A stretch of DNA of 64,000 bases from Nitrospirota bacterium (GCA_963749655.1 CAVVOB010000018.1:96001-160000), one strand, 5' to 3'. Positions 28,189 to 46,623 are shown, numbered from the stretch's first letter. Notes: generated from the letters alone by a model not told the origin. Translations and numbers: made by a program.

Positions 28189-29902
28189 TCAGGCTGGTCT
28201 TTTTTCCCGGTCCCCCGCTTCCGCATCGGCGAGTCCTTCGGGGATCGCTGCAGCATACACCCGGTAATCTATCCCGGGGAACAGGTTGTCACGCCATTCT
28301 ATATCGTTCAGCCAGGATTCGTCAAGAACGTTCGTCTTGATGCTCTCGTACAGCCGGGTGAATCTCACGATATGCTCCTTCGTCCTGCGGACCGCGTACT
28401 CCGCATGGCTGCCGGCCTTCATCATGAATGCCCAGTCGGAGCTCTGGGCCAGCAGAAGCTCACGCGCTGCCTGGTTCAGTGCCCTGCGCAGCAGACCGTC
28501 CGACCGGGGAAAGGTCTTAGCAAGCTCGACCATACGGTCAGCAGCCTCGTGCAGATGAGGGTAGATCCAGTCATTGGCGCCGTCGAGCCAGACCTCGGCA
28601 AATCCTTTCAATACCCCAGCTGGAAGGCGATGGCTCGGCCACCTGGCACCGCGGGTTCTCGGCCAGGTACTCCGTGGGCGTGATCATGCGAATCGTGTCA
28701 TGCTCAAGGGCGGTCTTCCGGATCACCAGGTTGAGCCAGTCCGGGCCCTCGAACCACCAATGGCCGAACAGCTCCGCGTCATAGGGTGCGACGATGATCG
28801 GCTTGCGGTCCTGGAACATGCTTCCGAGCCATTCGACCTGCTTCTCCCGGTTGGTGATGTAATTGTCCGCGTGGTCGGCGGCTCGTTCGAGCGCCCGCTG
28901 CGGAATATAAGGCTCCTTCTGGTTCGACGATCCCGTGATCCGGTGATATTTAATGCCCAGGTTCACGCGCATTCCGTCAGGGTGGAGATAGGGCTTGATA
29001 TAGTCGTAATCGAGGTCGAACCCCGCATCGCGATAGAAGTCGCGGTAGTTGTAATCACCCGGATACCCCTCGACGGAGCTCCAGACCTGTTTAGAAGACT
29101 CGACGTCCCTGCCGAAGGCGGCCACGCCCGAGCGGCAGTAAATCGGCGCGTACACGCCGTATTTCGGACGGGGCGTTGCATGAAACAGGCCGTGGGAATC
29201 CGTAAAAAAATAACGTATGCCCGCTTGTTTTACGATCTCGTCAAGGCCGGGATAATACCCGCATTCGGGCAGCCAGATTCCTTTCGGGGACCTCCCGAAA
29301 TGCGATTCGTAGTGCTCCACGGCGATCAGCACCTGGGCGAGAACGGCCCGATTGTTCTCCAGAAGAGGAAGAAAACCATGGGTCGCTGCGCAGGTGATGA
29401 TCTCGAGCTTGCCCAGATCCTGGAATTTCCGAAATGCGGCGACGAGGTCTCCCCGGTATGTTCCTTCGAACTCGGCGCGGGCCTTCGTGAACATCTTCCA
29501 GTACATGTGCGCGAGGGGATTGAACCGGGGATCGTTTCGCGTCCGGTCGATTTCCTTGCCGGCGAGCTCGATCAGCCTGGTAATATGGAGAAGGTAGCGC
29601 TGCTGCAGCAGAGGGTCGGACAGCATGGAGACCAAGGTCGGCGTGAGGCTCATGGTGAGCCGGAAGTCAACGCCGTCTTTCACGAGGCCTTCAAACATCG
29701 TGATCAGGGGAAGATAGGTTTCGGTGATCGCCTCGTACAGCCAGTCTTCTTCGAGAAAGCGATCATGCTCCGGATGGCGCACAAAGGGGAGATGACCGTG
29801 CAGCACCAGCGCGAGATAGCCTTTATCCGTTCCGCTTCCCGCAGCCTTCACCAATGCTTTCCCGTTACCGCGGCCGACCTGAGTCGTTTTTCCTTTTTTC
29901 AT
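28189..29902 (-). CDS. GH57 1,4-alpha-glucan branching enzyme (DUF1957); frameshift near 28610
   Basis: 'LVLHGHLPFV', 'WLPECGY', 'YDAELFGHWWFEG', 'SSWG', 'RELLLAQSSDWAF'. Confidence 0.92.
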
Positions 29903-30016
29903 CCCCGAAACCTTGTGATGAGATGCAAAACAAAAGTCCATCCCTGAACGGATGGACTTTGACGTGAAGAACAAACATCACTCTGCCGCCGGACCGAGAA
30001 ACCGGGGCATCGGATG

Positions 30017-31000
30017 CTATTTCCGTTTCGCCTTTGCCCGCTCGCGCGGGAACATGCCCGGCGACGTAATGTCCTGCATGCGCCGCCGGCGCATCATCTC
30101 CAGGAGCTCGGGCGAGGACACGCCGCCCCTGAATCCCTCCGGATAGCCATACAACTTCCAGAACTCCTCGTCCACGAGCATCCACTCTTCGTCGATCACG
30201 TCGGCTACTCCGTCGCGGGGCGTGGTCACAAAGTTCGACCGCGCCAGCGTCAGGAAGCGTCCCTCCGGCGAGAGCAGTCCGAGGTCCGCGCAGAATGAAT
30301 GGCTCGGCCTGCCGAGGTCGAAATACCAGTTCCCGGCCCGCTCGAACACTTCCTGGTCGAAATACCCGAGGGCGTTCCGCCCGTCGAACTGTATGCCCGT
30401 AATGTCGTAGATCCGGACGCAGAGCTTGCTGCCCCAGCCGAACCACGCTTTCTCCCGCTCCAGCCGGCCGGGTGTCGCTTCCCAGTAGGCATGGACAACG
30501 AAGGGATCGCGCGTCATCAGTACGATGCGGTCATGACCGTACTCACGGGCAAGTTCGCCGTGCTCGGCCACGGTCATCTGCGGCGCCGACCCGGTATAGT
30601 ATTTGGACTCCGAAATGCGCTCCTGCGCCAGGAGCGGCTCCTCTACCTTGGGCGGGTTCTTCCAGTCATGGACCGGCGGAACGACCGCACCGCGGACCTT
30701 CTGCATTCCCGCCCGGTCGGCGGCCGGCTTGCGGGCCGCTCCGGGATTGGCGGAACCAGCGGTTGCTTTTTCCGCCAGCGGCGCACGCTTCACGGCGGAT
30801 TTCGCTCCTGCCGGTCGTTTCCCGGCAGGTGCAGTTTTTTTCACCGCGGCCGCAGCCGGCTTTTTTGTGCTCTTTTCCGCAGCCATCAGCGCGGCGACGA
30901 TGTCACTCTTTTTATCTTGTGCAGACAGGGACACTTTCTTCTTCTTGGCCAGGGCTTTGAGTTCAGCCACAGTCATTGCTGTCAATTCGGTTCTTTTCAT
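30017..31000 (-). CDS. DUF4912 protein with Rho-N-like N-terminus and K/A-rich linker
   Basis: 'L..MTVAELKALAK', 'YG.DRIVLMTRDPF..HAYWE', 'RIYDITG', 'ARSN.VTTP'; usual neighbour of GH57. Confidence 0.85.
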   Translation of the reverse strand: MKRTELTAMTVAELKALAKKKKVSLSAQDKKSDIVAALMAAEKSTKKPAAAAVKKTAPAGKRPAGAKSAVKRAPLAEKATAGSANPGAARKPAADRAGMQKVRGAVVPPVHDWKNPPKVEEPLLAQERISESKYYTGSAPQMTVAEHGELAREYGHDRIVLMTRDPFVVHAYWEATPGRLEREKAWFGWGSKLCVRIYDITGIQFDGRNALGYFDQEVFERAGNWYFDLGRPSHSFCADLGLLSPEGRFLTLARSNFVTTPRDGVADVIDEEWMLVDEEFWKLYGYPEGFRGGVSSPELLEMMRRRRMQDITSPGMFPRERAKAKRK

Positions 31001-32782: not shown

Positions 32783-33646
32783 ATGAAACGGAACACCTGT
32801 CGTAAAATGCTGCTGTGGTTGCTGTCTATCGTGATTTTGTCTCTCTCACTCGCTGCACTGGCGAACGCCGATGAGCCCAAAAAGCCCAACGGCTTGAGCT
32901 CGAACGATTGTTCGAAGTGCCATGCCAGCCAACCGGCCGATATTGATGCAAACGGCGGGAAACACAAGTCGAAGATATCCTGCCAGGACTGCCATGCAGG
33001 CCATCGTCCGACATCAAAAAACAACATTCCTGTTTGCAGCCAGTGCCATCAGGGGAAGCCGCATTTCGACAGCCTCAAGGGGAAATGCCTGACATGCCAC
33101 ACCAATCCGCATACGCCCTTGAAGATAACCTTCACGCAACCCCAGACCGACGCCTGCCTCACCTGCCATACCGCGCAGATCAAGCAGCTGCGTGAAAACA
33201 AGAGCAAACACTCCACCCAGAACTGTACGAACTGCCACGGCGTTCACCGCGTGAAGCCGGCGTGCACGCAGTGCCACAAGCCGCACTCGTCCGACATCAC
33301 GGCGGCTGACTGCACGAAGTGCCATAAGGCCCACATGCCCAAGGTCGTGGCCTACGCTTCCGACACCGATTCGAAGTTCTGCGCTGCCTGCCACCGGAAC
33401 CAGTATAATATGCTGGTCGCTTCCAAGGTCAAGCACAGCACATTCAACTGCGCCTTCTGTCATCAGGACAAGCACAAGATGATCCCCAAGTGCCAGGACT
33501 GCCACGGCGCCAAGCATCCGGCTTCCATTATGGCCAAGTTCACAAGGTGCGGAGACTGCCATAAGATCGCCCACGACCTCAACAACTGGACGTCGGCGCC
33601 TGCTGCGGCAACCGGCGCTCCGAAAGCAAAAAAGAAGACACGTTAG
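32783..33646 (+). CDS. Periplasmic dodecaheme cytochrome c (3 tandem tetraheme repeats)
   Basis: Signal peptide; 12 CxxCH and 12 additional His; SD AAGGAGG. Confidence 0.93.
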   Translation: MKRNTCRKMLLWLLSIVILSLSLAALANADEPKKPNGLSSNDCSKCHASQPADIDANGGKHKSKISCQDCHAGHRPTSKNNIPVCSQCHQGKPHFDSLKGKCLTCHTNPHTPLKITFTQPQTDACLTCHTAQIKQLRENKSKHSTQNCTNCHGVHRVKPACTQCHKPHSSDITAADCTKCHKAHMPKVVAYASDTDSKFCAACHRNQYNMLVASKVKHSTFNCAFCHQDKHKMIPKCQDCHGAKHPASIMAKFTRCGDCHKIAHDLNNWTSAPAAATGAPKAKKKTR

Positions 33647-34803: not shown

Positions 34804-37422
34804 TCATCGGCCCGTCACTTCTGCCGCGTCTGCAAGTTCGTACTTACCCTCGAGAAACGACCGGACGTAGCGCTCCACGGCCCTGTCGTCGTTCAGTACG
34901 GCGTCCAGCTGCCGGGTGTAGGAAAAGAGCCGGCCGAGCTGGTCGAGGACCTTTACGGCGTCCTCCTGCTGAATGTTCGCAAGCCGGGCAAGGATGAGGT
35001 CCCCTTTGGTTTTGATGTTGAATCCGTACTCCTCCAGGATCGCGGCGATGAGCTGCAGCCGCCGCGAGCGCTTGGTCATGTCGGTTGCGCCGCCGGCGAA
35101 GCGGAAATAGATGTGGTTGTTCCTTGCCTGTTCGCTGCAGAAGCAGTCCATGACTATGAAGTGATATCCGAACTTGAGACTGATATTGGCATATTCCCGG
35201 GAGATGACCGCCATGTTCTGCTCCACACGGCCTGCCGGGCCCGCTGTAATGTCCGGCACGCGGAGCATACTCGTCATGAAATCGTTCATCCCGAGGGGAA
35301 CTGCGTCGGAACGCCAGAGCCCCGGGAGCGTCATGCCGTTGATAACGGCACGGAGCGGAATGGAGGAGATCTGCCCGGCGGTTACCTGGTCGTGGTTTTC
35401 AGGATTGTCAACCCCTCCGCCGATGTCGATCAGCATGATGCCTGCGGGGACGGACAGGTCGAGTCTGACGGCTCCGGACCGGACGCCCCGGCGCGCCCCG
35501 TCGATCAGCGCCGCTACGGACTTTTCGTGGATGAAGCGAAGGACGTCGTGCAGAGTCCTGCAGGCCTTGGGTGTAAATTCATCCCGCAGGGGATCGACAA
35601 GGTTCAGCGGCGTGATGGAGCGAAGCAGATACCGCTTCCTGCGGAACTCGTAGACGTTTTCCATCCTGCGCGCGTTCCGGTCGGCCCGGGCGACCAGGTC
35701 GGGGACGATCCCGCCGTAGATCGCCGACCTGTTGTCGTCTCCGGCAACAACGGTGACGGGCTGCCCGTGCTTCAGGCTCTCGGTGGCCCCGGACAGACCC
35801 ACGATGGTCGGGATTCTCAGCTCCCGGCACAGCGCGGCCATGTGGCTTGTCTGCGACCCCCGCTCGGTGATGATGGCCGAAACGTAGGGCATGGTGGATG
35901 CAAAGAGGGATGAGTCGCTGGGCGCCACGAGGACGACGCCTTTGGGCAGGTTCAGGATGTCCGCCGGCTTTCTGACAATGAAGACCTTGCCTGCCCCGGT
36001 GCCGCGCTGCACCACGGTACCGCGGTCCTGCAGGAGGACGGGATGGGCGCCGGCTGGATCGAGGTTCGCGGTCCCATTGGCTGACGCAGGCGGGTCGCTT
36101 CTGTCTTGCACGGCCAGCGGCCGCGCCTGGAGTACGAAGAACTTCCCCCTGGAGTCAATGGCCCATTCGATGTCGCGCGCCGATCCAAAATACCGCTCGA
36201 TTGCCATGGCATGGCGGGCGACGGCCGCCGCCGTTTCCGGGGACAGACAGGTCCGGTCCCGGAGCTCCTCGGGAGTCCTGATCTCCTCCGTCTCCCCCTT
36301 CCCGGCCATGCGTATCATGGATTCCTTCCTGCCGGGGGTCACCCACTTGAGCACCGGTTCCTTCCTCTTGCTCACGACATAGAGGTCCGCTTCCGCCCGG
36401 CCCTCGACAACGGCCTCGCCCAGTCCCCAGACAGCATTGATGATCAGGGTGTTCGCATCGCCCTCCGGTGTCGTCGTATAGATGACGCCGCTCGATGCGG
36501 CATCGACCATGACCATGCAGGCCACTGCCATTCTCATGTCCCGGATGCCGTAGCCCAGGCGCGCCTGATAGGCCGCCGCCGGTTCCGAAAAAAGACTGGC
36601 GATCACTTTGCGGTAAGCCTTTTCGATCTCGCCGGGATCGAGGGGAACGTTCAGGACGGTCTCGAACTGTCCGGCAAAGGAGAAGTCTCCATCCTCTTCC
36701 CCGGCGCTGCTCCTGACGGCAAGGGAGCAGCCCTCGCCGCAGCGAGCACGAAGCTTCTTCACGGTCTTCTCGATGGCGCGGCTGACCGGGGCGGGCATCG
36801 TTCCGTGCAGCATCAGCTCGCGGATCTCGTGCAGTACGGACGGGAGGATCGGAGCGCCGGGCCCGGGAAGCGCGATCTTTTCGAAAATGCGGTTCTCCTG
36901 CAGAAAGGCATCGAAAGCGGCCGTGGTAACGGCAAAGGCATCGGGAACCGCGAGACCGATCGCATTGCGGACCTCTGCCAGGCTCGCGTTTTTCCCCCCG
37001 ACAACGCGCGTCATGTCGGCGGTTATCCTGTCGTAGGTCAAGATAAAGGGTTCTGAAGCCGAGGGGGTCTCGTCAATGACCGTCCGGATCCTTTCATCGA
37101 TCTCCCGAAACCGGCCCTCCAGGCCGCTGAAGCGGCGGCCGGTCAGGTCGGCGAAGAGCCGGAGCGAATTCTCCATCTCCGCCCGGAGACGGGAATAGGA
37201 GCCGTTGACATAGACAATGTCGAACAGGTAGTCACCGCCCAGTTTCTCGCCCATGTCCGTGATGGTTTCGAGCGCCCTGTTGTTGCTGTCGAGTACGCTC
37301 CGGAAGCGGTCGAAGAGGGCCCGGAACTCGGCCGGATCCGCCGACGCCTTCCCGCGGAAGAGCGTCCGGGACAGTGACGAGTAGAGTGTCTGTATGATCA
37401 TCGAATGTTTCATGGCACTCAT
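34804..37422 (-). CDS. PEP-synthase/PPDK-like dikinase (ATP-grasp plus His swivel) with a non-canonical C-terminal domain
   Basis: 'VGGKNASL', 'AVRSSAGEED..SFAGQF', 'DIEWA', 'LQARP', 'TERGSQTSHMAALCRE'; no pyruvate-binding barrel motifs. Confidence 0.85.
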   Translation of the reverse strand: MSAMKHSMIIQTLYSSLSRTLFRGKASADPAEFRALFDRFRSVLDSNNRALETITDMGEKLGGDYLFDIVYVNGSYSRLRAEMENSLRLFADLTGRRFSGLEGRFREIDERIRTVIDETPSASEPFILTYDRITADMTRVVGGKNASLAEVRNAIGLAVPDAFAVTTAAFDAFLQENRIFEKIALPGPGAPILPSVLHEIRELMLHGTMPAPVSRAIEKTVKKLRARCGEGCSLAVRSSAGEEDGDFSFAGQFETVLNVPLDPGEIEKAYRKVIASLFSEPAAAYQARLGYGIRDMRMAVACMVMVDAASSGVIYTTTPEGDANTLIINAVWGLGEAVVEGRAEADLYVVSKRKEPVLKWVTPGRKESMIRMAGKGETEEIRTPEELRDRTCLSPETAAAVARHAMAIERYFGSARDIEWAIDSRGKFFVLQARPLAVQDRSDPPASANGTANLDPAGAHPVLLQDRGTVVQRGTGAGKVFIVRKPADILNLPKGVVLVAPSDSSLFASTMPYVSAIITERGSQTSHMAALCRELRIPTIVGLSGATESLKHGQPVTVVAGDDNRSAIYGGIVPDLVARADRNARRMENVYEFRRKRYLLRSITPLNLVDPLRDEFTPKACRTLHDVLRFIHEKSVAALIDGARRGVRSGAVRLDLSVPAGIMLIDIGGGVDNPENHDQVTAGQISSIPLRAVINGMTLPGLWRSDAVPLGMNDFMTSMLRVPDITAGPAGRVEQNMAVISREYANISLKFGYHFIVMDCFCSEQARNNHIYFRFAGGATDMTKRSRRLQLIAAILEEYGFNIKTKGDLILARLANIQQEDAVKVLDQLGRLFSYTRQLDAVLNDDRAVERYVRSFLEGKYELADAAEVTGR

Positions 37423-37567: not shown

Positions 37568-37933
37568 TTATTTCGCCAGCGCCCGCTTGATTGATTCTTT
37601 CAATTCCTTGATCCTGACGGGTTTTGGGAAAAAATCATGCACGTCGCCGCGCAGCGCCTCGATGGCCGCGTCGAGGTTCGCAAAGGCGGTGATCATGATC
37701 ACCGTCGTCCCCGGGTATTCCCGTTTGACGGTCCGGAGAACCTCCATGCCGTCGATGCCTTTCATCTTGTAGTCGGTGACCACGACCTGAAATTTTTTTT
37801 CCTTCAGCCTGGCCAGGGCCGGTTCGGCGTTCAGGAAGGTCTCGACATCGTACCCTTCCTGTTCGAGCGACAGCTTCGCCATGTCGCCCACGATCTTTTC
37901 GTCGTCAATGACCATGATGCTGTATTTATCCAT
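37568..37933 (-). CDS. Single-domain response regulator (receiver)
   Basis: 'VIDDE', 'VVTDYKM..IDG', 'MITAF', 'PKP'; start overlaps the kinase stop. Confidence 0.9.
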   Translation of the reverse strand: MDKYSIMVIDDEKIVGDMAKLSLEQEGYDVETFLNAEPALARLKEKKFQVVVTDYKMKGIDGMEVLRTVKREYPGTTVIMITAFANLDAAIEALRGDVHDFFPKPVRIKELKESIKRALAK

Positions 37934-39338
37934 CATTCCTCTCCTCGTGGTGATATTTCGGCAGCTCGACGGTAAAGGTCGTGCCGACGCCCACCTTGCT
38001 CTCCACCCTGATCTCTCCTTTATGATTCTTAATGATACCATAGCTGACCGACAGCCCCAGACCCGTTCCGCCCTCGCCCTTGGTGCTGAAGAAAGGATCG
38101 AAAATGTGGGGCAAATACTCCGGTGGGATGCCCTTGCCCGTATCCTTGACCGTGACCTCGACGGTTTCGCCGCTCTTCCCCGGCCGCGACGCAATATAAA
38201 GCCTTCCGCCTGCGTTCATGGCCTGGACGGCGTTGGTGATGAGATTGACGAAGACCTGCTGGATCTGGTGTTCGTCGAGGGAGAGATGGGGCAGACCCTC
38301 TTCGAGATTCACCGTCGTCTCGATGTTCTGCACGTCGATCATGTTCTGGACCAGCGTGAGGGTCTTCTGGATGACGGCGTTGATATCCGCCTCCCTCGGA
38401 TTCGCGTCCTTGGGTTTGGAAAAATCCAGGAGGTTCTTGACGATCTTGCGGATCCTTTCCGTTTCAGCGTCGACCTTCAGCATGAACCCGCGCCGGTCCG
38501 TTTCGTCCAGGTTCCCGTACAGCTCGTCGTAGGTCTGCGCGATCATGGAGATGTTGTTCAGGGGATTTGTGATCTCATGCGCAACGCCCGCCGTAAGAAT
38601 GCCGAGGGAGGCCAGCTTCTTGGACTGGATGATCTCCTCTTCGCGGTGGGCAAGCTCCTCGGACATGGAATTGACGGCCGTGATGACCGAACCGAGCTCG
38701 TCGTTCGACCGGAACCCTTCGATGTGGTGGAAATTTCCTTCCGAAATGGACCGCGTCATCCGCTCGATCTCCCGCAGGGACCGCACGATCTTCTGCGAGA
38801 TGAAATGGCTGATCAGGAGCGCGGAAGCCAGGATCGCCCAGAAGGAAAAAATAAGGATGCGCTTCGAACTCAGGATGATGTCGTTCACGCGCCGCCGTTC
38901 GAGCTGGGTGATCGAGTCAGAATATTCTTTCAGCTTCCTGCCGTCAAGGCGGATCCTTGCCTCGAGATCCAGGCCCGGAGCATTTCCCCTCCCCGTTGCC
39001 CTGACGGCGTCCGCATAGGACCGGAGCAGGGCTTCCAGCTTCCGGAGGTCCGTTTCTCCGATCGCCGGGATGATGTCCCCTTTCGCCGATTCAAGGGTAG
39101 CCTGGGCTGAGGCGATTTTCCCCTGGATCTCCGCGAGCGCCTTTCTGTCGTGGTAGAGAAAATAGTTCTTTTCCGACAGGCGCATCTCGAGGAACGACGC
39201 GTTCAGATCGTCGGCGATCTCCACGAACCGCAGCTTCGTCAGGACCAGGTTCATGTTCTGAAAGGCGAAAAAGCCGATCAGGATGATGAAGGCCCCGTTG
39301 ATGACATTCGAGAGGATAAGCTTGTTTTCGATCTTCAT
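37926..39338 (-). CDS. Sensor histidine kinase (2 TM, helical sensor, HAMP, HisKA, HATPase)
   Basis: 'LEMRLSEKNYFL', 'AHEITNPL', 'NLITNAVQA', 'DTGKGI', 'GTGLGL'. Confidence 0.93.
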   Translation of the reverse strand: MKIENKLILSNVINGAFIILIGFFAFQNMNLVLTKLRFVEIADDLNASFLEMRLSEKNYFLYHDRKALAEIQGKIASAQATLESAKGDIIPAIGETDLRKLEALLRSYADAVRATGRGNAPGLDLEARIRLDGRKLKEYSDSITQLERRRVNDIILSSKRILIFSFWAILASALLISHFISQKIVRSLREIERMTRSISEGNFHHIEGFRSNDELGSVITAVNSMSEELAHREEEIIQSKKLASLGILTAGVAHEITNPLNNISMIAQTYDELYGNLDETDRRGFMLKVDAETERIRKIVKNLLDFSKPKDANPREADINAVIQKTLTLVQNMIDVQNIETTVNLEEGLPHLSLDEHQIQQVFVNLITNAVQAMNAGGRLYIASRPGKSGETVEVTVKDTGKGIPPEYLPHIFDPFFSTKGEGGTGLGLSVSYGIIKNHKGEIRVESKVGVGTTFTVELPKYHHEERNDG

Positions 39339-39354
39339 GAACAATTTAGCATAG

Positions 39355-39465
39355 TGCACGGCGCATGGTAACTTCCGCAAAGAGCATAGGGCATGGCGCA
39401 TGAAGAGAGGTATCCCTCTGCCCTCTGCCCTAACTCAAAACTAAAAACTAAGAACCAGAAACTGC
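39355..39465. repeat. Heptamer repeat arrays
   Basis: GCATAGG/GCATGGC-type and AACTCAA/AACTAAA/AACTAAG units. Confidence 0.6.
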
Positions 39466-39467
39466 TT

Positions 39468-40703
39468 TTATTCCGGGTACGCGATCCCCCGCGGGATCTC
39501 GGCCTGCTCCTTGCGCACGGGCCAGTACCAGAACATGCCGTCCGCCAGCATCAGGACCCCGGCCGCCATGAGCCATAAGTTGAAGGACGTGAGCAGTCCA
39601 AACCCGAAATAGCTGATGATGCCGATGCCGATGCTCAGGAAAGAAATGCCGGTCCGGATGAATGCGAGTCCGGTCCGTGCCCGGGAGTAAATCGTGCGGT
39701 AACAGGCTGCGATCGTACGCTGGGCCGCCAGAACGTTTCGCTCCCGCGCGAACATGGTCCGCGTCTTGCTGGACGGCGTCGGATTCAAATACGTGCTGTA
39801 GTCCGCCAGCAGGTCTCCCATCCGGGCAAGCATGGTTCCCTGGATCCGCCGTTCAAGCGCCGTATCTTCCGGCGAATGGTAATTCTCGAGAAACTGGATC
39901 GTGGCCGCGGTCACCTCCGCAAGAGTCTGGTTGCCCGGCGGCGTCATCCGGGATTTTCGCACATTGAGATAACCGGGAAGACCGTACAGGGCGATGATGA
40001 TGCCGATCGCAAGAACTGAAAAATAGAGATAGGGATTCGTGCTCGTGTTCTTTGACTGCAGCAAAGCATTCGAAAGGGCGATCGTACCCAGGCCCCACCG
40101 AAGAAAAGCGAGCCCGGTCCTGGCCTTCGCCAGATCGGTCCGGTAGCAGGCCATTCTCGTGCGCCATTGGGCCATGGTGTTTCTCCAGAATGCAAGGCCC
40201 GTCCGCTCGGTCCCGATCAGAAGACCCGGCCGTGCATGGAGATAGTCCTGGATGTACCCTTGAATGTCCGAATCGAGGGCGACACGAAACTCATAGCGTT
40301 CCGCCTTGATGAACTTTCTTACGTCCTCCCGCATCGCCGGGCTCTCGGGATTGCGCGCCGCGATCGTAACCAGACCCGACCGGTCCCTCATGACGGGCAT
40401 CCACTGGTACGACGAAAGGGAGTCCTGGCTGACGGCGGAGAGCAGTTCCGGAGGGATCGGCAGCCGTTCGTCGTACTCGATGGAGGCGCAGTGATAGTAC
40501 TCGGCAAGCGCCTCGAGCAGGTCCTGCTTGAACACGCCGAACTCCCGAATCAGCACCTTCTCGAGTTCTACTCCACGGGCCTGTGCCATTCCCCCCGCGT
40601 CTTCCAGTTCCGCCCGGCTCAGAATACCCCGGTCAACCAGAAGCGAGAACTCCGACTGCGGTCGGACGGGAGTGTTGACCACGTTTTCGATATCATTCTT
40701 CAT
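39468..40703 (-). CDS. GspE/PilB N-terminal-like domain plus 2 DUF202-like membrane units
   Basis: N-terminal 'LLVDRGIL...LLEALAEYY..IEYD..WMPV..VTIAARNP'; two 'RT(G)LAF.R.G' plus TM-hairpin units. Confidence 0.75.
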   Translation of the reverse strand: MKNDIENVVNTPVRPQSEFSLLVDRGILSRAELEDAGGMAQARGVELEKVLIREFGVFKQDLLEALAEYYHCASIEYDERLPIPPELLSAVSQDSLSSYQWMPVMRDRSGLVTIAARNPESPAMREDVRKFIKAERYEFRVALDSDIQGYIQDYLHARPGLLIGTERTGLAFWRNTMAQWRTRMACYRTDLAKARTGLAFLRWGLGTIALSNALLQSKNTSTNPYLYFSVLAIGIIIALYGLPGYLNVRKSRMTPPGNQTLAEVTAATIQFLENYHSPEDTALERRIQGTMLARMGDLLADYSTYLNPTPSSKTRTMFARERNVLAAQRTIAACYRTIYSRARTGLAFIRTGISFLSIGIGIISYFGFGLLTSFNLWLMAAGVLMLADGMFWYWPVRKEQAEIPRGIAYPE

Positions 40704-42336
40704 TGTGATTAAAAATAATCGTCCCCCAGGACAGGGCAGGCCTGCCGTAGTCCGGGACGGTTATCTCCATGTCTCCGTAGCAATAGGGGTACTCTTTTCT
40801 CATACGCTCGACCGGCACCATCCAGCGGTATCCGTCGACGATGAGAACAAGCCCGCCGACGATCAGCAGACCGTTGAAAATGGTCCAGCCCACGGAGGCC
40901 ACGCCGAAATAAACCAGGAGGCCCGCTCCCACCGACGTAATGCTCATGCCCGTCCTGATGTAGGCCAGTCCCGTCCGAGCAACGGCCATGATCGTGCGAA
41001 GCCTGGCCATGACGCCCCGGCGGTCGGCCAGCACGGTCCGCTCCAGTGCAACACCCGTCGTGCCCCAGATGCCGGGCATCTGGCTTGCAGTGACCGGCGG
41101 TCCGGCCTTGTCTTTCTTTGAACCCAAGCGTTTGTGGCCGGGAGGGAATACAAGATCCCAGATGGTCTCCTTGTTGAGCACGTCAAGAACGGACCGGTAG
41201 CCTTCAAGGCCTGCCTTGCGGCCCCCAAAGTACCAGTGGAACCCCTCCGCGGACATGAGAATGCCGGCGATGATCAGGGAAACGTCGAAGAACGTCCACC
41301 CGCTCGCTGAAAACTGTCTCAGGAGCCCGATGCCGAGGCCGGTGAAGGCAATGCCGGTCCTGGTAAAGGCCAGTCCCGTCCTGGCCCGGGCGAGCTTTGT
41401 CCGGTGGCCGGCAAGGGACGTCCGTTCCTCCGCCATATCGGTCCGGTCGCTGGCCAGAAATCTCCTTCTCATGACCGGGGAAAGGTTCTCCCATCCCGCC
41501 CTGAGTTCCGTTGCGCCCTCCATCTCTCCCGTGCGGCTGAAGGACGGATGTCCATTGATCAGATCATCGCGGAGAACGCAGCTGCCCCAGGTGGGATTCG
41601 TCCGCGCGCCGTCGATCGGTTTGCCGGCTATTCTTCTCGCAGGCAGGTACCACTTGATCCCGTCATAGACCATGATGATCCCCGCTACGAGGAGCGGCGC
41701 TTCCAGGGCCGCGTACCATCCCGCGCCGAGCACGCGCAGGAACAGGAGGGCGATCACGATGAACGAGACGCCGGTCCGGATAAAGGCGAGCCCGGTCCTG
41801 CCCTTCGCGAACAGGGTGCGGTAATGGGCATAGGTCGAGCGGCGGTAGGCAAAGAGCGTCCGCACGCGCGCAAGCGGCGTCCGTCCGCCGGAAATGCAGA
41901 AGTTGGGGTTTACGTCGAAATTGTGCTCTATGATGCGGATGAGGTCCGAGGGAAGAGCTACGCGGAAATCGATCTGTTCAACGCCGAGTGTCCGCTTGAT
42001 GTCTTCAGCCACACGAGGGTCATCAGGACGACAGGCGACGACTTCGGCCCGCCTCTCCCTGACCGAAAGAGGGAACCACAGGGCTTTCTTTTGATGTTCC
42101 AGGTCGAGCCTCAGAACGATAAAATAGGACGCGACGACGCCTTCGTCGAATTCAACGAAGGGAAGGCCGTAGTAGGCCGCCAGGCTTAAGAGGATCTCGT
42201 GCTTTGGTATGCCCTTGTTCACGAGGAGCTCTTCGATCGCTGCGCCGGACCCCTTCGCATCCTGCTCCAGCTTTGTCAGGTCCTCAAGCGGGAGCAATCC
42301 CCGCTTAACCAGCCTATGATATCTCATCACTTTCAT
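40693..42336 (-). CDS. GspE/PilB N-terminal-like domain plus 3 DUF202-like membrane units
   Basis: N-terminal 'LVKRGLL...LAAYYGLPFVEF..WFPL..VVACRP'; three 'RTGLA(F/Y).RTG' plus TM-hairpin units; overlaps the next gene by 11 nt. Confidence 0.75.
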   Translation of the reverse strand: MKVMRYHRLVKRGLLPLEDLTKLEQDAKGSGAAIEELLVNKGIPKHEILLSLAAYYGLPFVEFDEGVVASYFIVLRLDLEHQKKALWFPLSVRERRAEVVACRPDDPRVAEDIKRTLGVEQIDFRVALPSDLIRIIEHNFDVNPNFCISGGRTPLARVRTLFAYRRSTYAHYRTLFAKGRTGLAFIRTGVSFIVIALLFLRVLGAGWYAALEAPLLVAGIIMVYDGIKWYLPARRIAGKPIDGARTNPTWGSCVLRDDLINGHPSFSRTGEMEGATELRAGWENLSPVMRRRFLASDRTDMAEERTSLAGHRTKLARARTGLAFTRTGIAFTGLGIGLLRQFSASGWTFFDVSLIIAGILMSAEGFHWYFGGRKAGLEGYRSVLDVLNKETIWDLVFPPGHKRLGSKKDKAGPPVTASQMPGIWGTTGVALERTVLADRRGVMARLRTIMAVARTGLAYIRTGMSITSVGAGLLVYFGVASVGWTIFNGLLIVGGLVLIVDGYRWMVPVERMRKEYPYCYGDMEITVPDYGRPALSWGTIIFNHNEE

Positions 42337-42404
42337 CTTTTTCAGGATCGAATGATCACGCAACTGAGTGGGGGCAGGGCCTCGCTTCGGCCGGTCGGCA
42401 ACGG

Positions 42405-42490
42405 TCGGAAAGAATGGGAAGAGGCGCAAAGGCCTCTTCCCCATGCACATAACGGGGGATGTCTGCTGCCCGTACTCGGCAGCCGTGCAA
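42405..42490 (-). promoter_or_regulatory. Structured leader / terminator-like hairpins upstream of the DUF202 genes
   Basis: Stems ATGGG(G)AAGAGGC/GCCTCTTCCCAT followed by TCTTT; GCTGCC/GGCAGC; TGCAC/GTGCA. Confidence 0.45.
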
Positions 42491-42575: not shown

Positions 42576-42767
42576 TCAGGCCTGTTTGCCGTCCTTGCGC
42601 TCGCTTGCCGACGGTCCGTCCTGGCCGTCCTTCATGGCCTTTTTGAATTCCCTGATGCCCCTGCCAAGGCCCTCTCCGAGCTCGGGGAGCTTTCCCGGAC
42701 CGAATATGATCAGTACGATAAAAAGGATCAGCAGCAGATGCATCGGTTGAAACATTCCTTCAAACAT
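42576..42767 (-). CDS. tatA: Twin-arginine translocase TatA/E subunit
   Basis: '[35 protein letters not shown]'. Confidence 0.93.
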
Positions 42768-42853: not shown

Positions 42854-43276
42854 CTACACTCCCACAACAAACACGGGGCACGTTGCCCGGTCGATGACCT
42901 TCTCCACCACATGGTCCCCGAAGAGGCGGCTCAGAATGCCCTTTTTCTTCTTGGAGCCCATGATGATGAGGTCGCACCGCTCTTCCCGGGCGACTTCCAC
43001 GATCCGGTCCGGGACATCGCCGGTCTCCAGGCGTGTTTTTACCATGGCGTTCTCGGCGGCAGCAATCTCGCTGATGTCCGCAACGGCCTTGGCTGCACCG
43101 TCGTCCAGGACGTCGTGCAGGTTCTTGATGCCCGTAAGATTGAGCTCGCCGTCAAAGGGCCGGAGCACCTTGACGACGGTGATCCATGTTCTTTCGTCTT
43201 TTGCGAGCTTGATGCCCTGCTTCAGGACCTCCCGGGAGCCGTTCAAAGCGATCAATACTTTTCTATAGCCTTTCAT
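42854..43276 (-). CDS. Universal stress protein (single domain)
   Basis: 'YRKVLIALNGS', 'DLIIMGS', 'FGDHVVEKVI..ATCPVFVV'. Confidence 0.9.
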   Translation of the reverse strand: MKGYRKVLIALNGSREVLKQGIKLAKDERTWITVVKVLRPFDGELNLTGIKNLHDVLDDGAAKAVADISEIAAAENAMVKTRLETGDVPDRIVEVAREERCDLIIMGSKKKKGILSRLFGDHVVEKVIDRATCPVFVVGV

Positions 43277-43289
43277 GTTCTAACTCCTC

Positions 43290-43474
43290 TGGAGCATAGT
43301 GCATGAGAACACTAGCCTGCATAGAGCATGGTGCATGGAGCATTAAAATACAGTTTTTAGTCGTGAGTCGTGAGTTTTTAGTTATTCCCGCTGTTATCTT
43401 CCGACTCGAAACTAAAAACTACAAACTCAAAACTAAGCACTCATAACTGCCCTTGGTCTCTCTGCTCTCTGCCC
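43290..43474. repeat. Composite heptamer inverted-repeat element between USP genes
   Basis: GCATAGA/GCATGGT units; GTTTTTA/GTCGTGA arm opposite an AACTAAA/AACTACA/AACTCAA arm. Confidence 0.7.
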
Positions 43475-44338
43475 TCACTTCACGATCAATATCGGACAGG
43501 AGGCATGAGCAATGACCCGCTCCGCCGTACTGCCCATGAGCGCCTTGTTGACCCCGCGCCAGCCGTGCGTTCCGACGACGATCAGGTCGTGATCCTTTGT
43601 CTCGGCCGCTTCGACGATCTTGTCTCCCGAGTGGCCTTCCATGACCGAGGTCGTTACCTCGACGCCCAGCCCCGAGGCGATGCCCCGGGCGACGGCGACG
43701 ATCTTATCCGCTTCCTGCATCAGGCTTTTCCTGACAGCGTCGGTCTTGAAAAAGTCCATCATCTCTTCGTAGCGAGGGATCACATAGAGGACCGATACTT
43801 TTGCTCCGTCCACCTTTGACAGGGCACAGGCCCGGGTCAGCGCTTTCCTGCTCGATTCCGAGCCGTCGAAGGGCACGAGCAGGGAGCGGTAGTTGCCGCT
43901 GCATTTCGAGCAGGGCCGCTTCACTACGAGCACGTCGCAGGGCGCGCTGAGGATGACCTGCGAGGTCACGCTGCCCATGAGCAGCCGCTTCAGGCCCTTC
44001 CTGCCGTAGGTGCCGAGGGCGATCAGGTCCGCATGATTCGTCTCCGCTGTTTCCACGAGCACCTGGGGAGGCTCTCCCTGGCAGACGAACGAATCGACAT
44101 TGCCGTTCAAACCGAATTCATCATGGATCCCGGTTTTTGCCCGCCGGCAGATCTGCGTGCCGATCTCGAAGCGTTGTTCCATCTGAGAGGGCAGGATTGC
44201 GAACTCCTCCTGGTCGAAATAGACCGCATGGACCAGGAAAAGCTTCCCTCCGTGTTGTTTTATCCAGAGCGACGATTCTTTGACCGCCGCTTTGCTCGAT
44301 TCCGACTCGTCGAATCCGACCACGATGGTGTTATACAT
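43475..44338 (-). CDS. Universal stress protein (tandem domains, CxxC linker)
   Basis: Two USP domains 'G.YGRKG..LMGSV' and 'GTHGWRG..LMGSTA'; linker 'PCSKCSG'. Confidence 0.93.
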   Translation of the reverse strand: MYNTIVVGFDESESSKAAVKESSLWIKQHGGKLFLVHAVYFDQEEFAILPSQMEQRFEIGTQICRRAKTGIHDEFGLNGNVDSFVCQGEPPQVLVETAETNHADLIALGTYGRKGLKRLLMGSVTSQVILSAPCDVLVVKRPCSKCSGNYRSLLVPFDGSESSRKALTRACALSKVDGAKVSVLYVIPRYEEMMDFFKTDAVRKSLMQEADKIVAVARGIASGLGVEVTTSVMEGHSGDKIVEAAETKDHDLIVVGTHGWRGVNKALMGSTAERVIAHASCPILIVK

Positions 44339-45137
44339 CAGTGAGAACCTCCGCCTTTCCTGAACACCAGCCCCACGCCGAAACCTGCTACCAGGGCGAT
44401 GCCGATGGAGAGGACACCGTAGAGAGCCGCGCTGTTCTTGGCCATGTTCGCCAGGGCCTTGACCATGCCGACCTGCTCCACATTCACCTTGGACTCGGCC
44501 TGCTCGATGACCTTGCCGTTCTTGACCGCGTAGACCGTGACAAGGTAATCGCCGGGCGCGGCCTGGTAGGGCCAGTCGGTCACGATGGAATACTCCTGCC
44601 TGCCTTTGTCGTTCCGGTCGTCGTGATCTTGCCGTAGGACGTGACGTAGACCTTCGAGTCCTCCTTGAACTTCACGAACTCGTTGAACCACGTCGCTTTG
44701 TCCGCTTCGTTCGAAAGCGGATTGATCTCGACATGCTTCTGGAGAGAAGGATACCCGATCACGAATCTGTCCCTCTCTTCAGGGCTGAGGATATCCTCCA
44801 CCTTCTTAGTGCTGAAGACTTCGTAAAAATTCGGCGTGTTCTCGAACTTCAGCTGCCCCACGTTCATCCAGAGCGCACCCGCCACCTTGCCCTTCTGTTT
44901 CAGAACCTGGTGCCCCTCGGGCGATGCGATCTTGATGACCAGGTCCATGTTGGGGTCCGATTCTCCCCTGACGGACACGGTGCTGCCGTGATAGAAGAAG
45001 TCGACGGTGATGTGGTCATGGTTCGCCTTGGCCGTCAGCATGGCCGAAGCAGTGTTCGCCATTCCAAAAGTAATGATAAGCGCCAATACGGCGATCATCA
45101 TAATTCCGCATTCCGCATTCCGAATTCCGAATTTCAT
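44338..45137 (-). CDS. TIGR02186-like exported protein with C-terminal anchor (TSUP partner); frameshift near 44610
   Basis: 'HITVDFFYHGS', 'KGKVAGALWMN', 'WPYQAAPGDY.V', C-terminal TM ending 'FRKGGGSH'; TGATG coupling at both ends. Confidence 0.8.
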
Positions 45138-46066
45138 CAGTGTCCTCCTACCTGTGAGAGAAGTAATGACGGTGTCAGCGTCAGTTCGAACACGATCTTT
45201 ACGGTCACCACGAGAACGATGACGGCGAGGAGGATCTTGAGCTGCTCGCCCTTCAGCTTCCTGCCCAGCACGGTGCCGACCTGCGCGCCGAACGTCGAGC
45301 CCACGAGAAGCAGCACGGCAAGCGTGAAGTCCACGCTGTGGTTCGTGTAGGCCTGGAGGAAGGTCACTTCAATGCAGGTGAAAAGGATCTGGAACAGGCT
45401 GGTCCCCACCACCACGTGCATGGGCATCCGGAGCATGTAGACCATGACCGGGACCATCAGGAAGCCGCCTCCCACGCCCATGATCGCCGCCAGAATGCCG
45501 ACGAAGGTGCCCAGGACGATCGGTACCAGGGCCGAATGGGTCACGCCGGATTTCTCGAAGCGGGTCTGGAGCGGAAGGGACTTGAGGAAACGGCCCACGC
45601 CGGACTCCTTTTCCGCTTTGTCCGTGTTGTCCTGCACCGCGGTCTTGCTCTTCCGCATGCTCTGCAGGCTCTCAATGAACATGTAGATGCCCACGATCCC
45701 GAGCATCAGCACGTAGGTCATCTTGATGACGAAATCGGCGTTGCCCATGGCGTGCAGGACCTTGATGGCCTGGACGCCGACGATGCCGCCGAGAAATCCG
45801 CCCACGAGGAGATAGAGACCCATCTTGAAGTCCACGTTGCCCACCTTCCAGTGAGCATAGGTGCCCGAGGTGGACGCAGCCACGATCTGGTTGGAATCTG
45901 TTGCCGCGGCAACGGTCGACGGAATGCCGAACATGATGAGAAGAGGCGTCAGCAGGAAGCCGCCGCCCACGCCGAACAGGCCGGACAGCAGCCCCACTAC
46001 CAGCCCGAGCCCCACGGGGATCAGGATGTTGATGCTTGTCAATGCTACGGGTAGGTACAGGTACAT
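45137..46066 (-). CDS. TSUP (TauE/SafE) family transporter
   Basis: 'GLFGVGGGFLLTP', 'AIMGVGGGFLMVP', 'VVGTSLFQI'; SD AAGGAG. Confidence 0.93.
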   Translation of the reverse strand: MYLYLPVALTSINILIPVGLGLVVGLLSGLFGVGGGFLLTPLLIMFGIPSTVAAATDSNQIVAASTSGTYAHWKVGNVDFKMGLYLLVGGFLGGIVGVQAIKVLHAMGNADFVIKMTYVLMLGIVGIYMFIESLQSMRKSKTAVQDNTDKAEKESGVGRFLKSLPLQTRFEKSGVTHSALVPIVLGTFVGILAAIMGVGGGFLMVPVMVYMLRMPMHVVVGTSLFQILFTCIEVTFLQAYTNHSVDFTLAVLLLVGSTFGAQVGTVLGRKLKGEQLKILLAVIVLVVTVKIVFELTLTPSLLLSQVGGH

Positions 46067-46146
46067 TCTCCACTCCTTATAGATGAGATTAAATGCTGTA
46101 ATGCTTGCTGCGCTTGGTTTGCACTGTTTCGGTTCATGCGCCCGCT

Positions 46147-46623
46147 TTACGCCACGGCGTCGGCATGTTTGACCATGGTGACGATCGGCCGCGATGCGGT
46201 CTTGACCAGCCGCTTGAGCTCTTTCGACGAGATGTCGCCGTTCTCGGTGATGCTCGGGCTCAGGAGCACCATGTCGATGGAGTTGTTCTGCTTCAAAAAC
46301 TCCTTCAGGGACGATACGGCGTCGTGGACTGCCGTATACACAGCTGTGGCCATTCCCGACTGTCGGCACTTCTCCTCCAGCATGCGGGGCAGGTCGTCCT
46401 CCGCTTCCGATGCCTCCATGATCTGCCGCGCCGTGTCCTGTTCTCCGGCTTCGGCAAAGGTCACAGCGGTCATAATGTTCTCGAACTTGTCGGCAAGCCG
46501 TTTCTTGTTGACCAGCAAGATGGCCATGCCTTTGTCGGTCATTTTCGCCAGGTCAAGAGCATAGGACAGGTCCTGGCCAAAATCACCATCACGATAGGTC
46601 ACAAATAAGAGATTCCGTTTCAT
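46147..46623 (-). CDS. Degenerate USP-like protein
   Basis: 'LLFVTY..YALDLAK', 'AVTFAEAGEQDTARQIM', 'IDMVLLSP', 'LVKTASRPIVTM'; paralog of 52410-53015. Confidence 0.7.
   Translation of the reverse strand: MKRNLLFVTYRDGDFGQDLSYALDLAKMTDKGMAILLVNKKRLADKFENIMTAVTFAEAGEQDTARQIMEASEAEDDLPRMLEEKCRQSGMATAVYTAVHDAVSSLKEFLKQNNSIDMVLLSPSITENGDISSKELKRLVKTASRPIVTMVKHADAVA

Follow-up and report, generated by a model that had tools for sequence, protein, structure and literature searches.

A 64,000-nucleotide stretch of DNA from a Nitrospirota bacterium of the sulfate-reducer type (GCA_963749655.1, CAVVOB010000018.1:96001-160000), referred to here as the window, carries on its minus strand two overlapping genes, gene 1 and gene 2, whose products combine an N-terminal domain of the MshEN/GSPII type with three and two hairpin units of the DUF202 family, respectively. 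These two proteins probably act as a pore or binding tunnel that takes up negatively charged molecules under the control of a sensor. In its complete form, the reading we favour, and put forward tentatively, is that of an obligate hetero-complex forming an arginine-lined anion conduit similar to the channel of the yeast VTC complex, under the control of a phosphorelay. To our knowledge, no function is known for the large bacterial family DUF202/YidH, whose sole characterised relative is the eukaryotic VTC pore. The argument starts from what the analysis established: the domains of both proteins, their arginine ladders, the continuity of the ladder and membrane helices, the fixed 3 + 2 layout, the adjacency of both genes and the operon in which they lie.

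Gene 2 occupies a minus-strand open reading frame of 411 amino acids (aa; 39468..40703), and gene 1 lies within one of 585 aa (40693..42450), in which a start at 42336 corresponds to Met39 and gives a protein of 547 aa. Since most homologues of gene 1 among the matches listed are 545-552 aa long, 42336 is the likely start. As the sequence-only reading of this DNA had stated, the two genes overlap by 11 nucleotides (40693-40703, ATGAAGAATGA), the ATG of gene 2 being placed within the last codons of gene 1. Against Pfam gathering cut-offs of 23.4 bits for DUF202 (PF02656) and 23.1 bits for MshEN, gene 1 scores 55.6 bits for DUF202 in three stretches and 40.1 bits for MshEN, and gene 2 scores 47.6 bits for MshEN and 27.8 bits for DUF202 in two stretches, covering positions 1-63 (gene 1) and 1-67 (gene 2) of the 68 in the DUF202 profile. 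The proposed membership in this family is therefore upheld by Pfam's own cut-off. No DUF202 genes other than the pair were found in the window's genome.

The defining feature of these units is a ladder of arginines spaced 7 residues apart. In the numbering of the 547-aa gene 1 and the 411-aa gene 2 products, the ladders span residues 152-187 (six Arg), 291-326 (six) and 433-461 (five) of the former, and 167-202 (six) and 315-350 (six) of the latter, adding up to 29 arginines. When the residues of each protein were shuffled 20000 times, chains of at least five arginines at this spacing appeared in 51 (gene 1) and 23 (gene 2) of the shuffles; the real proteins hold three and two such chains. The 3 + 2 units with arginine heptads described from the sequence alone are thus confirmed, and every heptad string quoted at that time is present, with the correction that the first arginine of the second ladder is R291, one heptad before the start that was listed. 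An alignment of the five units leaves R14, R21, R28, T29, R35, T36, G37, L38, A39, R42 and G44 invariant, and the RTxLAxxRT-type motif that precedes the first membrane helix is present in all of them as RTGLAF(I/T/L)R(T/W)G. Across 62 gene-1-type and 61 gene-2-type sequences, at identities down to 34-40%, the ladder arginines are invariant or nearly so.

In AlphaFold2 models of gene 1 (predicted local distance difference test score 81.9, predicted template-modelling score 0.75) and gene 2 (77.9 and 0.59), the ladder and the first membrane helix (TM1) are continuous, as helices 152-203, 287-341 and 428-477 in the former, and 163-217 and 314-366 in the latter. In all five units these ladder helices span 50-55 residues, run into TM1, and are followed by a short loop and a second helix (TM2). 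YidH-type proteins have three membrane helices. According to DSSP on the models, the units described here have two, as the sequence-only reading had cautioned, and so fall short of the three-helix arrangement of YidH and Vtc1. On the face of TM1 that continues the ladder, position +7 is small in units 1 to 5 (V, G, S, A and S, respectively), and position +14 is again an arginine in units 1 and 2 (59/62 and 60/62 sequences). Helix conservation moments at 100 degrees per residue ranged from 0.01 to 0.09 and were uninformative.

Two structural reports on yeast VTC describe a 3:1:1 pentamer (three Vtc1, one Vtc3 or Vtc2, and one Vtc4) with three membrane helices per subunit, whose pore is lined by the five TM1 helices, K24 and R31 of Vtc1 and their equivalents forming two basic rings, 7 residues apart, at the cytoplasmic mouth (PMC9911596; bioRxiv 10.1101/2023.01.27.525886). 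This agrees with the heteropentameric basic pore of five first helices on which the sequence-only reading had built. Such a pore, taken together with the DUF202 membership of both proteins, argues for a conduit, and the same is suggested by the near-invariance of the ladder arginines, the single continuous ladder-TM1 helix in all five units, and the small +7 residues and +14 arginines on the ladder face of TM1, along with the burial face considered below.

Word-indexed searches returned 997 relatives of gene 1 and 1432 of gene 2. Among the best 120 of each, identity is 60-100% and 63-100%, respectively, lengths are unchanged, and the labels are just 'DUF202', 'YidH' or 'type II secretion protein'. 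In the library searched, none of the papers listed joins DUF202 with MshEN, GSPII or T2SSE_N, and searches for DUF202, YidH and VTC gave the domain name in eukaryotic SPX/VTC contexts only; the pair is a widespread family for which we found no published description. A scan of a sample of 401 genomes of the phylum matched gene 1 in 151 cases at E <=1e-5 and in 57 at E <=1e-100 (rows counted by hand), with a gene-2-type match directly downstream in every strong match checked, the weak matches, such as those at around 1e-10 in 72 of the 76 genomes of family f9, being taken to be MshEN domains of pilus ATPases. A further scan, in which each species was represented by one genome and the query was a divergent four-sequence alignment, returned 80 loci, some of which are identical to the 20 loci taken from the phylum scan, so that both sets are not independent. 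These 80 loci belong to Nitrospirota (Thermodesulfovibrionales, Dissulfurispiraceae) and to Desulfobacterota, the carriers among the latter including Solidesulfovibrio alcoholivorans DSM 5433, a complete Solidesulfovibrio chromosome, Candidatus Electronema, Desulfobulbus, Syntrophobacteraceae, Desulfobacterales and Dissulfuribacterales.

Within this 80-locus set, for which all adjacency counts are given over the loci with room, gene 2 adjoins gene 1 in 74/74 cases. Three ladders were found in 78/82 gene-1-type frames, with 6,6,5 arginines in 61 frames, 6,7,5 in 11, 7,6,5 in four and 6,8,5 in two, and two ladders in 75/77 gene-2-type frames. The two genomic outcomes that the sequence-only reading had named as fatal to its proposal, freely varying unit counts and genes occurring singly, are therefore not what is seen. 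A five-unit profile, searched against 1.84 billion representatives, matched 1742 proteins at E <=1e-3, headed by 11 three-unit and 10 two-unit proteins. Neither a fused five-unit protein nor any protein with more than three full units was found among the best 150 of these 1742 matches, which tells against fusion since a fused protein would outscore the others. A search of the ESM Atlas with the gene 1 homologue P0017 recovered the family's own clusters alone. In a maximum likelihood tree of the units from 16 of the 62 gene-1-type members, 15 of the 61 gene-2-type members and 10 single-unit relatives, the units fall into five clades, one per position (support 99/97, 100/98, 100/99, 100/100 and 90/45), so that the five positions were already distinct before the pair spread over two phyla, and each has been kept since. 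The unbroken adjacency, the lack of a fused form and the five distinct clades together point to obligate partners.

Some loci stand apart from this pattern. One genome carries two separate pairs (L007, L008). The loci L025 and L026 are the two ends of one 24.8-kb contig, with an identical gene-1/gene-2 match in opposite orientation, which looks like a palindromic assembly artefact. P0252, a single metagenomic case of 399 aa, is of the gene-1 type and lacks one unit, its unit 1 ladder running straight into the unit 2 hairpin; recombination or faulty assembly may account for it.

The five-unit profile also gave single-hairpin DUF202 relatives with 8-20 RTxLAxx heptads, of which 38 representatives remained once P0346 and P0357 had been dropped as unrelated ERExLxx repeat proteins without the hairpin. 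Read by eye, the array enters the RTG...hairpin in 33 of the 38. In P0273, a C-terminal receiver domain is fused to the hairpin (Response_reg 96.7 bits, DUF202 27.3 bits). The composition of the heptad is common to all groups, with R at position 1, T at position 2 (75-81%), L, M or F at position 4 (about 90%), and A, or A or S, at position 5 (69-95%), while the other positions are mostly polar in the long arrays and often aromatic or aliphatic in genes 1 and 2, and the net charge per heptad is +0.54 in the long arrays versus +1.16 to +1.18 in genes 1 and 2. Since the R/T/L/A face is the sole candidate for burial in the polar long arrays, the arginine would occupy the 'a' position and the leucine the 'd' position of a coiled coil, with the small alanine beside them, a register deduced from composition. 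The greasy outer face of the heptads in genes 1 and 2 fits a second layer of helices packing around the inner bundle, a layer that the long extensions of TM2 and the conserved linkers could provide.

The operon supplies a candidate control route. A histidine kinase with a HAMP domain follows gene 2 in 64/67 loci, and a receiver-only response regulator follows the kinase in 63/63, in both cases over two phyla. These frequencies, along with the receiver-hairpin fusion of P0273, are the grounds for proposing phosphorelay control. A dikinase-like enzyme stands next to the regulator in 33/52 loci, is absent from most Desulfobacterota loci, and is a looser member of the operon than the kinase and the receiver. 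Its PEP-utilizers_C barrel was not found, and its last ~290 residues match no family. The C-terminal domain is present in 1-6 copies per genome in the five Desulfobacterota carrier genomes tested, and marks a sizeable dikinase-type family. Beside the pair, a TauE/SafE-family permease, its Alph_Pro_TM partner and Usp proteins recur in differing gene orders, and the recurrence of this anion permease speaks for the anion conduit.

Bringing these elements together, the products of genes 1 and 2 would be obligate partners in a single inner-membrane complex of the DUF202 superfamily, built from five non-equivalent hairpins. Each unit is a helix of about 52 residues, whose 35 cytoplasmic residues repeat R-T-x-(L/M/F)-A-x-x and which continues as TM1, followed by TM2. 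The five long helices may form the inner ring of a VTC-like and CorA-like bundle, with the stripe of Arg, Ala and Thr facing the axis, so that five or six stacked arginine rings, some 1 nm apart, would lead into a glycine- and serine-rich passage through the membrane. The product would be an anion-selective conduit or binding tunnel, with oxyanions of sulfur or phosphorus and linear polyanions as candidate cargoes. The HAMP histidine kinase would phosphorylate the receiver-only regulator, which in turn may open or close the barrel, either at its cytoplasmic part or by way of the two GSPII-fold domains. Putative elements of this scheme are the hetero-complex as such, its ring, the inward orientation of the arginines, the conduction of anions and the gating route.

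The N-terminal domains bear on how such a complex may be switched. Foldseek with the gene 1 model matched PilF GSPII-B, MshE and XpsE-N (E 6e-5 to 1e-3, TM-score 0.63-0.73 on the target), PilF GSPII-B being the best match at 6e-5, and VIA-align gave Z 14.9 for the gene 2 domain against MshE (5htl_B; root-mean-square deviation 3.6 over 138 residues). This fold resemblance to c-di-GMP (cyclic diguanosine monophosphate)-bound MshE and to PilF GSPII-B, MshEN Pfam scores above the cut-off in both proteins, and a weak match of gene 2 to the NCBIfam c-di-GMP_motif (E 0.0017) would be the basis for a membrane effector gated by c-di-GMP, in which the MshEN domains bind the nucleotide and switch the membrane part. 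According to Wang et al. (PMC5013675), the MshEN motif consists of two tandem 24-residue stretches, RLGxx(L/V/I)(L/V/I)xxG(L/V/I)(L/V/I)xxxxLxxxLxxQ, and the authors also give a relaxed form; neither the strict nor the relaxed form is found in any of the 62 gene-1-type or 61 gene-2-type sequences. The NCBIfam score reaches 18.1 bits versus a cut-off of 38, and divergent members of the Desulfovibrionaceae type lack most of the motif-bearing N-terminal helical half, the Pfam match of P0250 starting at profile position 10. Gating by c-di-GMP is hence highly improbable. The domains are better read as putative protein-interaction modules. For the GspE-N-like caps suggested by the sequence-only reading, the fold is upheld, and even the relaxed c-di-GMP motif is lacking.

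Several observations weigh against an anion conduit. In VTC, the third helix (TM3) takes part in every subunit interface and bears the arginine of an inter-subunit 'ionic lock' salt bridge (bioRxiv 10.1101/2023.01.27.525886); with two membrane helices per module in place of three, the packing here must differ. The profile of the units retrieved nothing significant from the PDB sequences, and no VTC chain, so that the link with VTC rests on the shared Pfam family. For the helical part of gene 2, VIA-align gave the generic matches common for helical bundles (syntaxin Z 10.5, Mrs2 Z 8.4), and Foldseek on the gene 1 model was convincing for the N-terminal domain only, the membrane part matching unrelated transporters at E >0.03. 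The pair is dispensable, since no match was found in two out of 14 genomes belonging to the window's genus, including one that is 97% complete; another genome of that genus, G245, has a copy with stop codons. In three genomes (L005/L083, L006 and L102), tandem gene-1 copies, 54-57% identical to gene 1 of the window (L005 9937-13387, L006 8640-12170, L102 7258-10703), precede a single gene 2, giving eight units per locus, which can be fitted to a pentamer only if the copies are alternative subunits, as they may be by analogy with yeast Vtc2 and Vtc3. Moreover, the 'd' leucines alternating with the arginine rings could close a narrow five-helix lumen, and the relatives with 12-20 heptads look more like stalks than pores. 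A signalling or structural stalk is the foremost alternative, though less probable than the conduit: the arginine-leucine coiled coil would be a closed bundle, perhaps stabilised by anions or anionic lipid head groups, and the pair, anchored in the membrane, would serve as a co-sensor or receive the output of the kinase and receiver, relaying conformational signals and conducting no solute. It is consistent with the arrays of 8-20 heptads in single-unit relatives, which at 12-30 nm are far beyond what a pore needs, with the fusion of one relative (P0273) to a receiver, with signalling proteins being the tightest conserved partners (64/67 and 63/63), with the regulatory role of the GSPII domains of pilus ATPases as protein- or ligand-binding modules, which the fold matches bring in, and with a gene 2 helical part resembling long soluble helical bundles as much as channels. 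However, a stalk leaves unexplained why exactly five non-equivalent units are kept on two proteins over two phyla, and why small residues and the +14 arginine continue the ladder face through TM1; a net charge of +1.16 to +1.18 per heptad would be hard to bury without counter-ions, and the only characterised DUF202 assembly is a pore.

Within the conduit reading, polyphosphate is not the favoured cargo. A polyphosphate translocase, the bacterial counterpart of the VTC channel, perhaps fed with chain by the dikinase-like enzyme of the operon, would be a special case of this reading, and an improbable one. The DUF202 homology and the count of five units match the 3:1:1 pentamer of VTC, the ring spacing of about 1 nm would suit a linear polyanion, a phosphoryl-transfer enzyme follows the operon in 33/52 loci, and both polyphosphate kinases, PPK1 and PPK2, are present in the Candidatus Electronema and Desulfobulbus carriers. 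Nevertheless, neither kinase was found in the other nine of 11 carrier genomes, namely the window's genome, five that are 98-100% complete, two Solidesulfovibrio and one Syntrophobacteraceae, one of the nine being a complete chromosome. The VTC polymerase domain (Pfam VTC, PF09359) was found neither in the operon nor in the window's genome, which is 86.6% complete, confirming the caveat already raised from the sequence; the dikinase-like enzyme is missing from most Desulfobacterota loci, where its C-terminal domain belongs to a family with multiple copies. PPK1 (PF02503) is missing from 63 of the 64 genomes of the window's family, 40 of which matched gene 1 and 23 of which did not, and PPK2 was missing from all six members of this Nitrospirota family that were tested; the usual polyphosphate kinases seem to be lacking in these lineages. 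Since PPK1 is missing with or without the pair, its absence is a lineage trait and no sign of replacement, and the pair as a substitute for these kinases was rejected. The polyphosphate cargo implied by the earlier proposal of a polyanion channel is therefore weakened. Even less probable is a receiver-gated, pseudo-pentameric tunnel of 29 arginines threading a linear polyanion made by the dikinase, that is, a PPK-independent synthase-translocase of polyphosphate (or of polythionate or polysulfide) that would be the VTC analogue of lineages without PPK1 and PPK2. Every carrier seen is a sulfur-cycling anaerobe (Thermodesulfovibrionales, Desulfovibrionaceae, Syntrophobacteraceae, Desulfobulbales, with cable bacteria among them, and Dissulfuribacterales), and this, together with the recurrent TauE/SafE, Alph_Pro_TM and Usp neighbours, makes a polymer no more likely a cargo than an oxyanion of sulfur or phosphorus, and points to a role in the handling of sulfur or phosphorus anions.

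Table 1. Features of the gene pair and its neighbours in the window (aa, amino acids; PEP, phosphoenolpyruvate).
Feature	Position	Strand	Extent in protein	Content	Method
Gene 1	40693..42336	-	547 aa	MshEN/GSPII-like domain and three DUF202 hairpin units; reading frame open upstream to 42450	
N-terminal GSPII/MshEN-fold domain of gene 1	41914..42324	-	about residues 5-141		Pfam, Foldseek
Unit 1	41623..41895	-	gene 1 residues 148-238	ladder R152-R187, TM1, TM2	
Unit 2	41206..41478	-	gene 1 residues 287-377	ladder R291-R326, TM1, TM2	
Unit 3	40789..41061	-	gene 1 residues 426-516	ladder R433-R461 (5 Arg), TM1, TM2	
Gene 2	39468..40703	-	411 aa	MshEN/GSPII-like domain and two DUF202 hairpin units	
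N-terminal GSPII/MshEN-fold domain of gene 2	40233..40655	-	about residues 17-157		Pfam, VIA-align
Unit 4	39948..40217	-	gene 2 residues 163-252	ladder R167-R202; most divergent unit, RWG replaces RTG	
Unit 5	39504..39773	-	gene 2 residues 311-400	ladder R315-R350	
Membrane histidine kinase	37926..39401	-		HAMP, HisKA, HATPase_c; directly downstream of gene 2	Pfam
Receiver-only response regulator	37568..37942	-	124 aa		Pfam
PEP-synthase-like dikinase-type enzyme	34804..37422	-		PPDK_N ATP-grasp and mobile His domain	
Upstream recurring neighbours	42854..46369	-		Usp, double Usp, Alph_Pro_TM, TauE/SafE-family anion permease	Pfam

The order of the upstream Usp, Alph_Pro_TM and TauE/SafE genes (Table 1) is matched in many Nitrospirota loci, other arrangements being found in L031, L032 and L037. 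In the window, the Alph_Pro_TM gene (44338-45137, minus strand) is split over two frames with a junction at about 44613-44625, due to either a frameshift or an assembly error; it is a single 283-aa frame in L024, and both parts are in frame in L010. Between the Usp gene and gene 1 lies a TatA/E gene of 63 aa (42576-42767, minus strand), for which tblastn found no counterpart in the 20 or the 80 related loci, so that this position seems to be a peculiarity of this genome or of close relatives. A scan for the sigma-54 promoter consensus gave two matches versus a chance mean of 4.3, neither of them near the operon. Among sequencing runs, none of RNA is listed as a source of this DNA, and the shares in DNA runs are small. 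Upstream of the operon, at 28571-31000 and 32783-33646 of the window, there are a GH57 glycoside hydrolase accompanied by a DUF4912 protein, and a cytochrome c of the multihaem kind with c3/c7-type motifs.

The fixed count of five units over two chains, and an invariant ladder marking the presumed lumen, would make the function of DUF202/YidH proteins testable, the more so as the pair is present in the cultured and non-pathogenic Solidesulfovibrio alcoholivorans DSM 5433, and its own kinase and receiver suggest the route by which it is switched. If the pair is a channel, it would add a new class to the bacterial conduits for anions or polyanions, and the architecture of the VTC pore would predate the eukaryotes; if it is a stalk, it would be a coiled coil unusual in having arginine at a core position.

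The single-domain DUF202/YidH proteins of bacteria (PF02656) belong to the Pfam family of the pair and, like it, have the RTxLAxxRT motif where TM1 begins, but consist of single short units, in contrast to the tandem two-helix units, extended ladders, GSPII-fold fusion and obligate gene pairing described here. The long-array single-unit proteins (P0262, P0267, P0269 and P0273 among them) have the heptad and the RTG...hairpin in common with the pair and form one tree group beside unit 2. They differ in having one unit, 8-20 heptads with polar outer positions, a net charge of +0.54 versus about +1.17, and no GSPII-fold domain, and presumably form homo-oligomers. With MshE, PilF and XpsE/GspE, the pair shares the two-subdomain MshEN/GSPII fold (Z 12-15) and the Pfam family; unlike in these proteins, no secretion ATPase is attached and the c-di-GMP motif is absent.

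CorA/Mrs2 assemblies are pentameric, and offer an analogy in their long cytoplasmic stalk helix continuous with the pore TM1, short outer loop and second membrane helix. The structural matches (8ts1_A Z 8.4, 3rkg_A Z 7.2, by VIA-align) lie inside the generic range of helical bundles, no GMN loop motif is visible in the loops of the pair as read from the sequences, and no sequence relationship is apparent; contrary to CorA/Mrs2, the lining would be basic and would select anions rather than cations. The VTC channel combines DUF202-type modules, five in total, a TM1 that starts with basic residues 7 apart, and heteromeric, non-equivalent subunits with alternative paralogues, all of which find their counterpart in the pair. 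Here, however, the five modules are distributed over two chains (3 + 2) instead of five, 5-6 rings would be stacked on a cytoplasmic helix of about 35 residues instead of the two rings of VTC, the pair lacks a TTM polymerase and an SPX domain, and the regulatory place would be taken by the GSPII-fold domains and a two-component pair.

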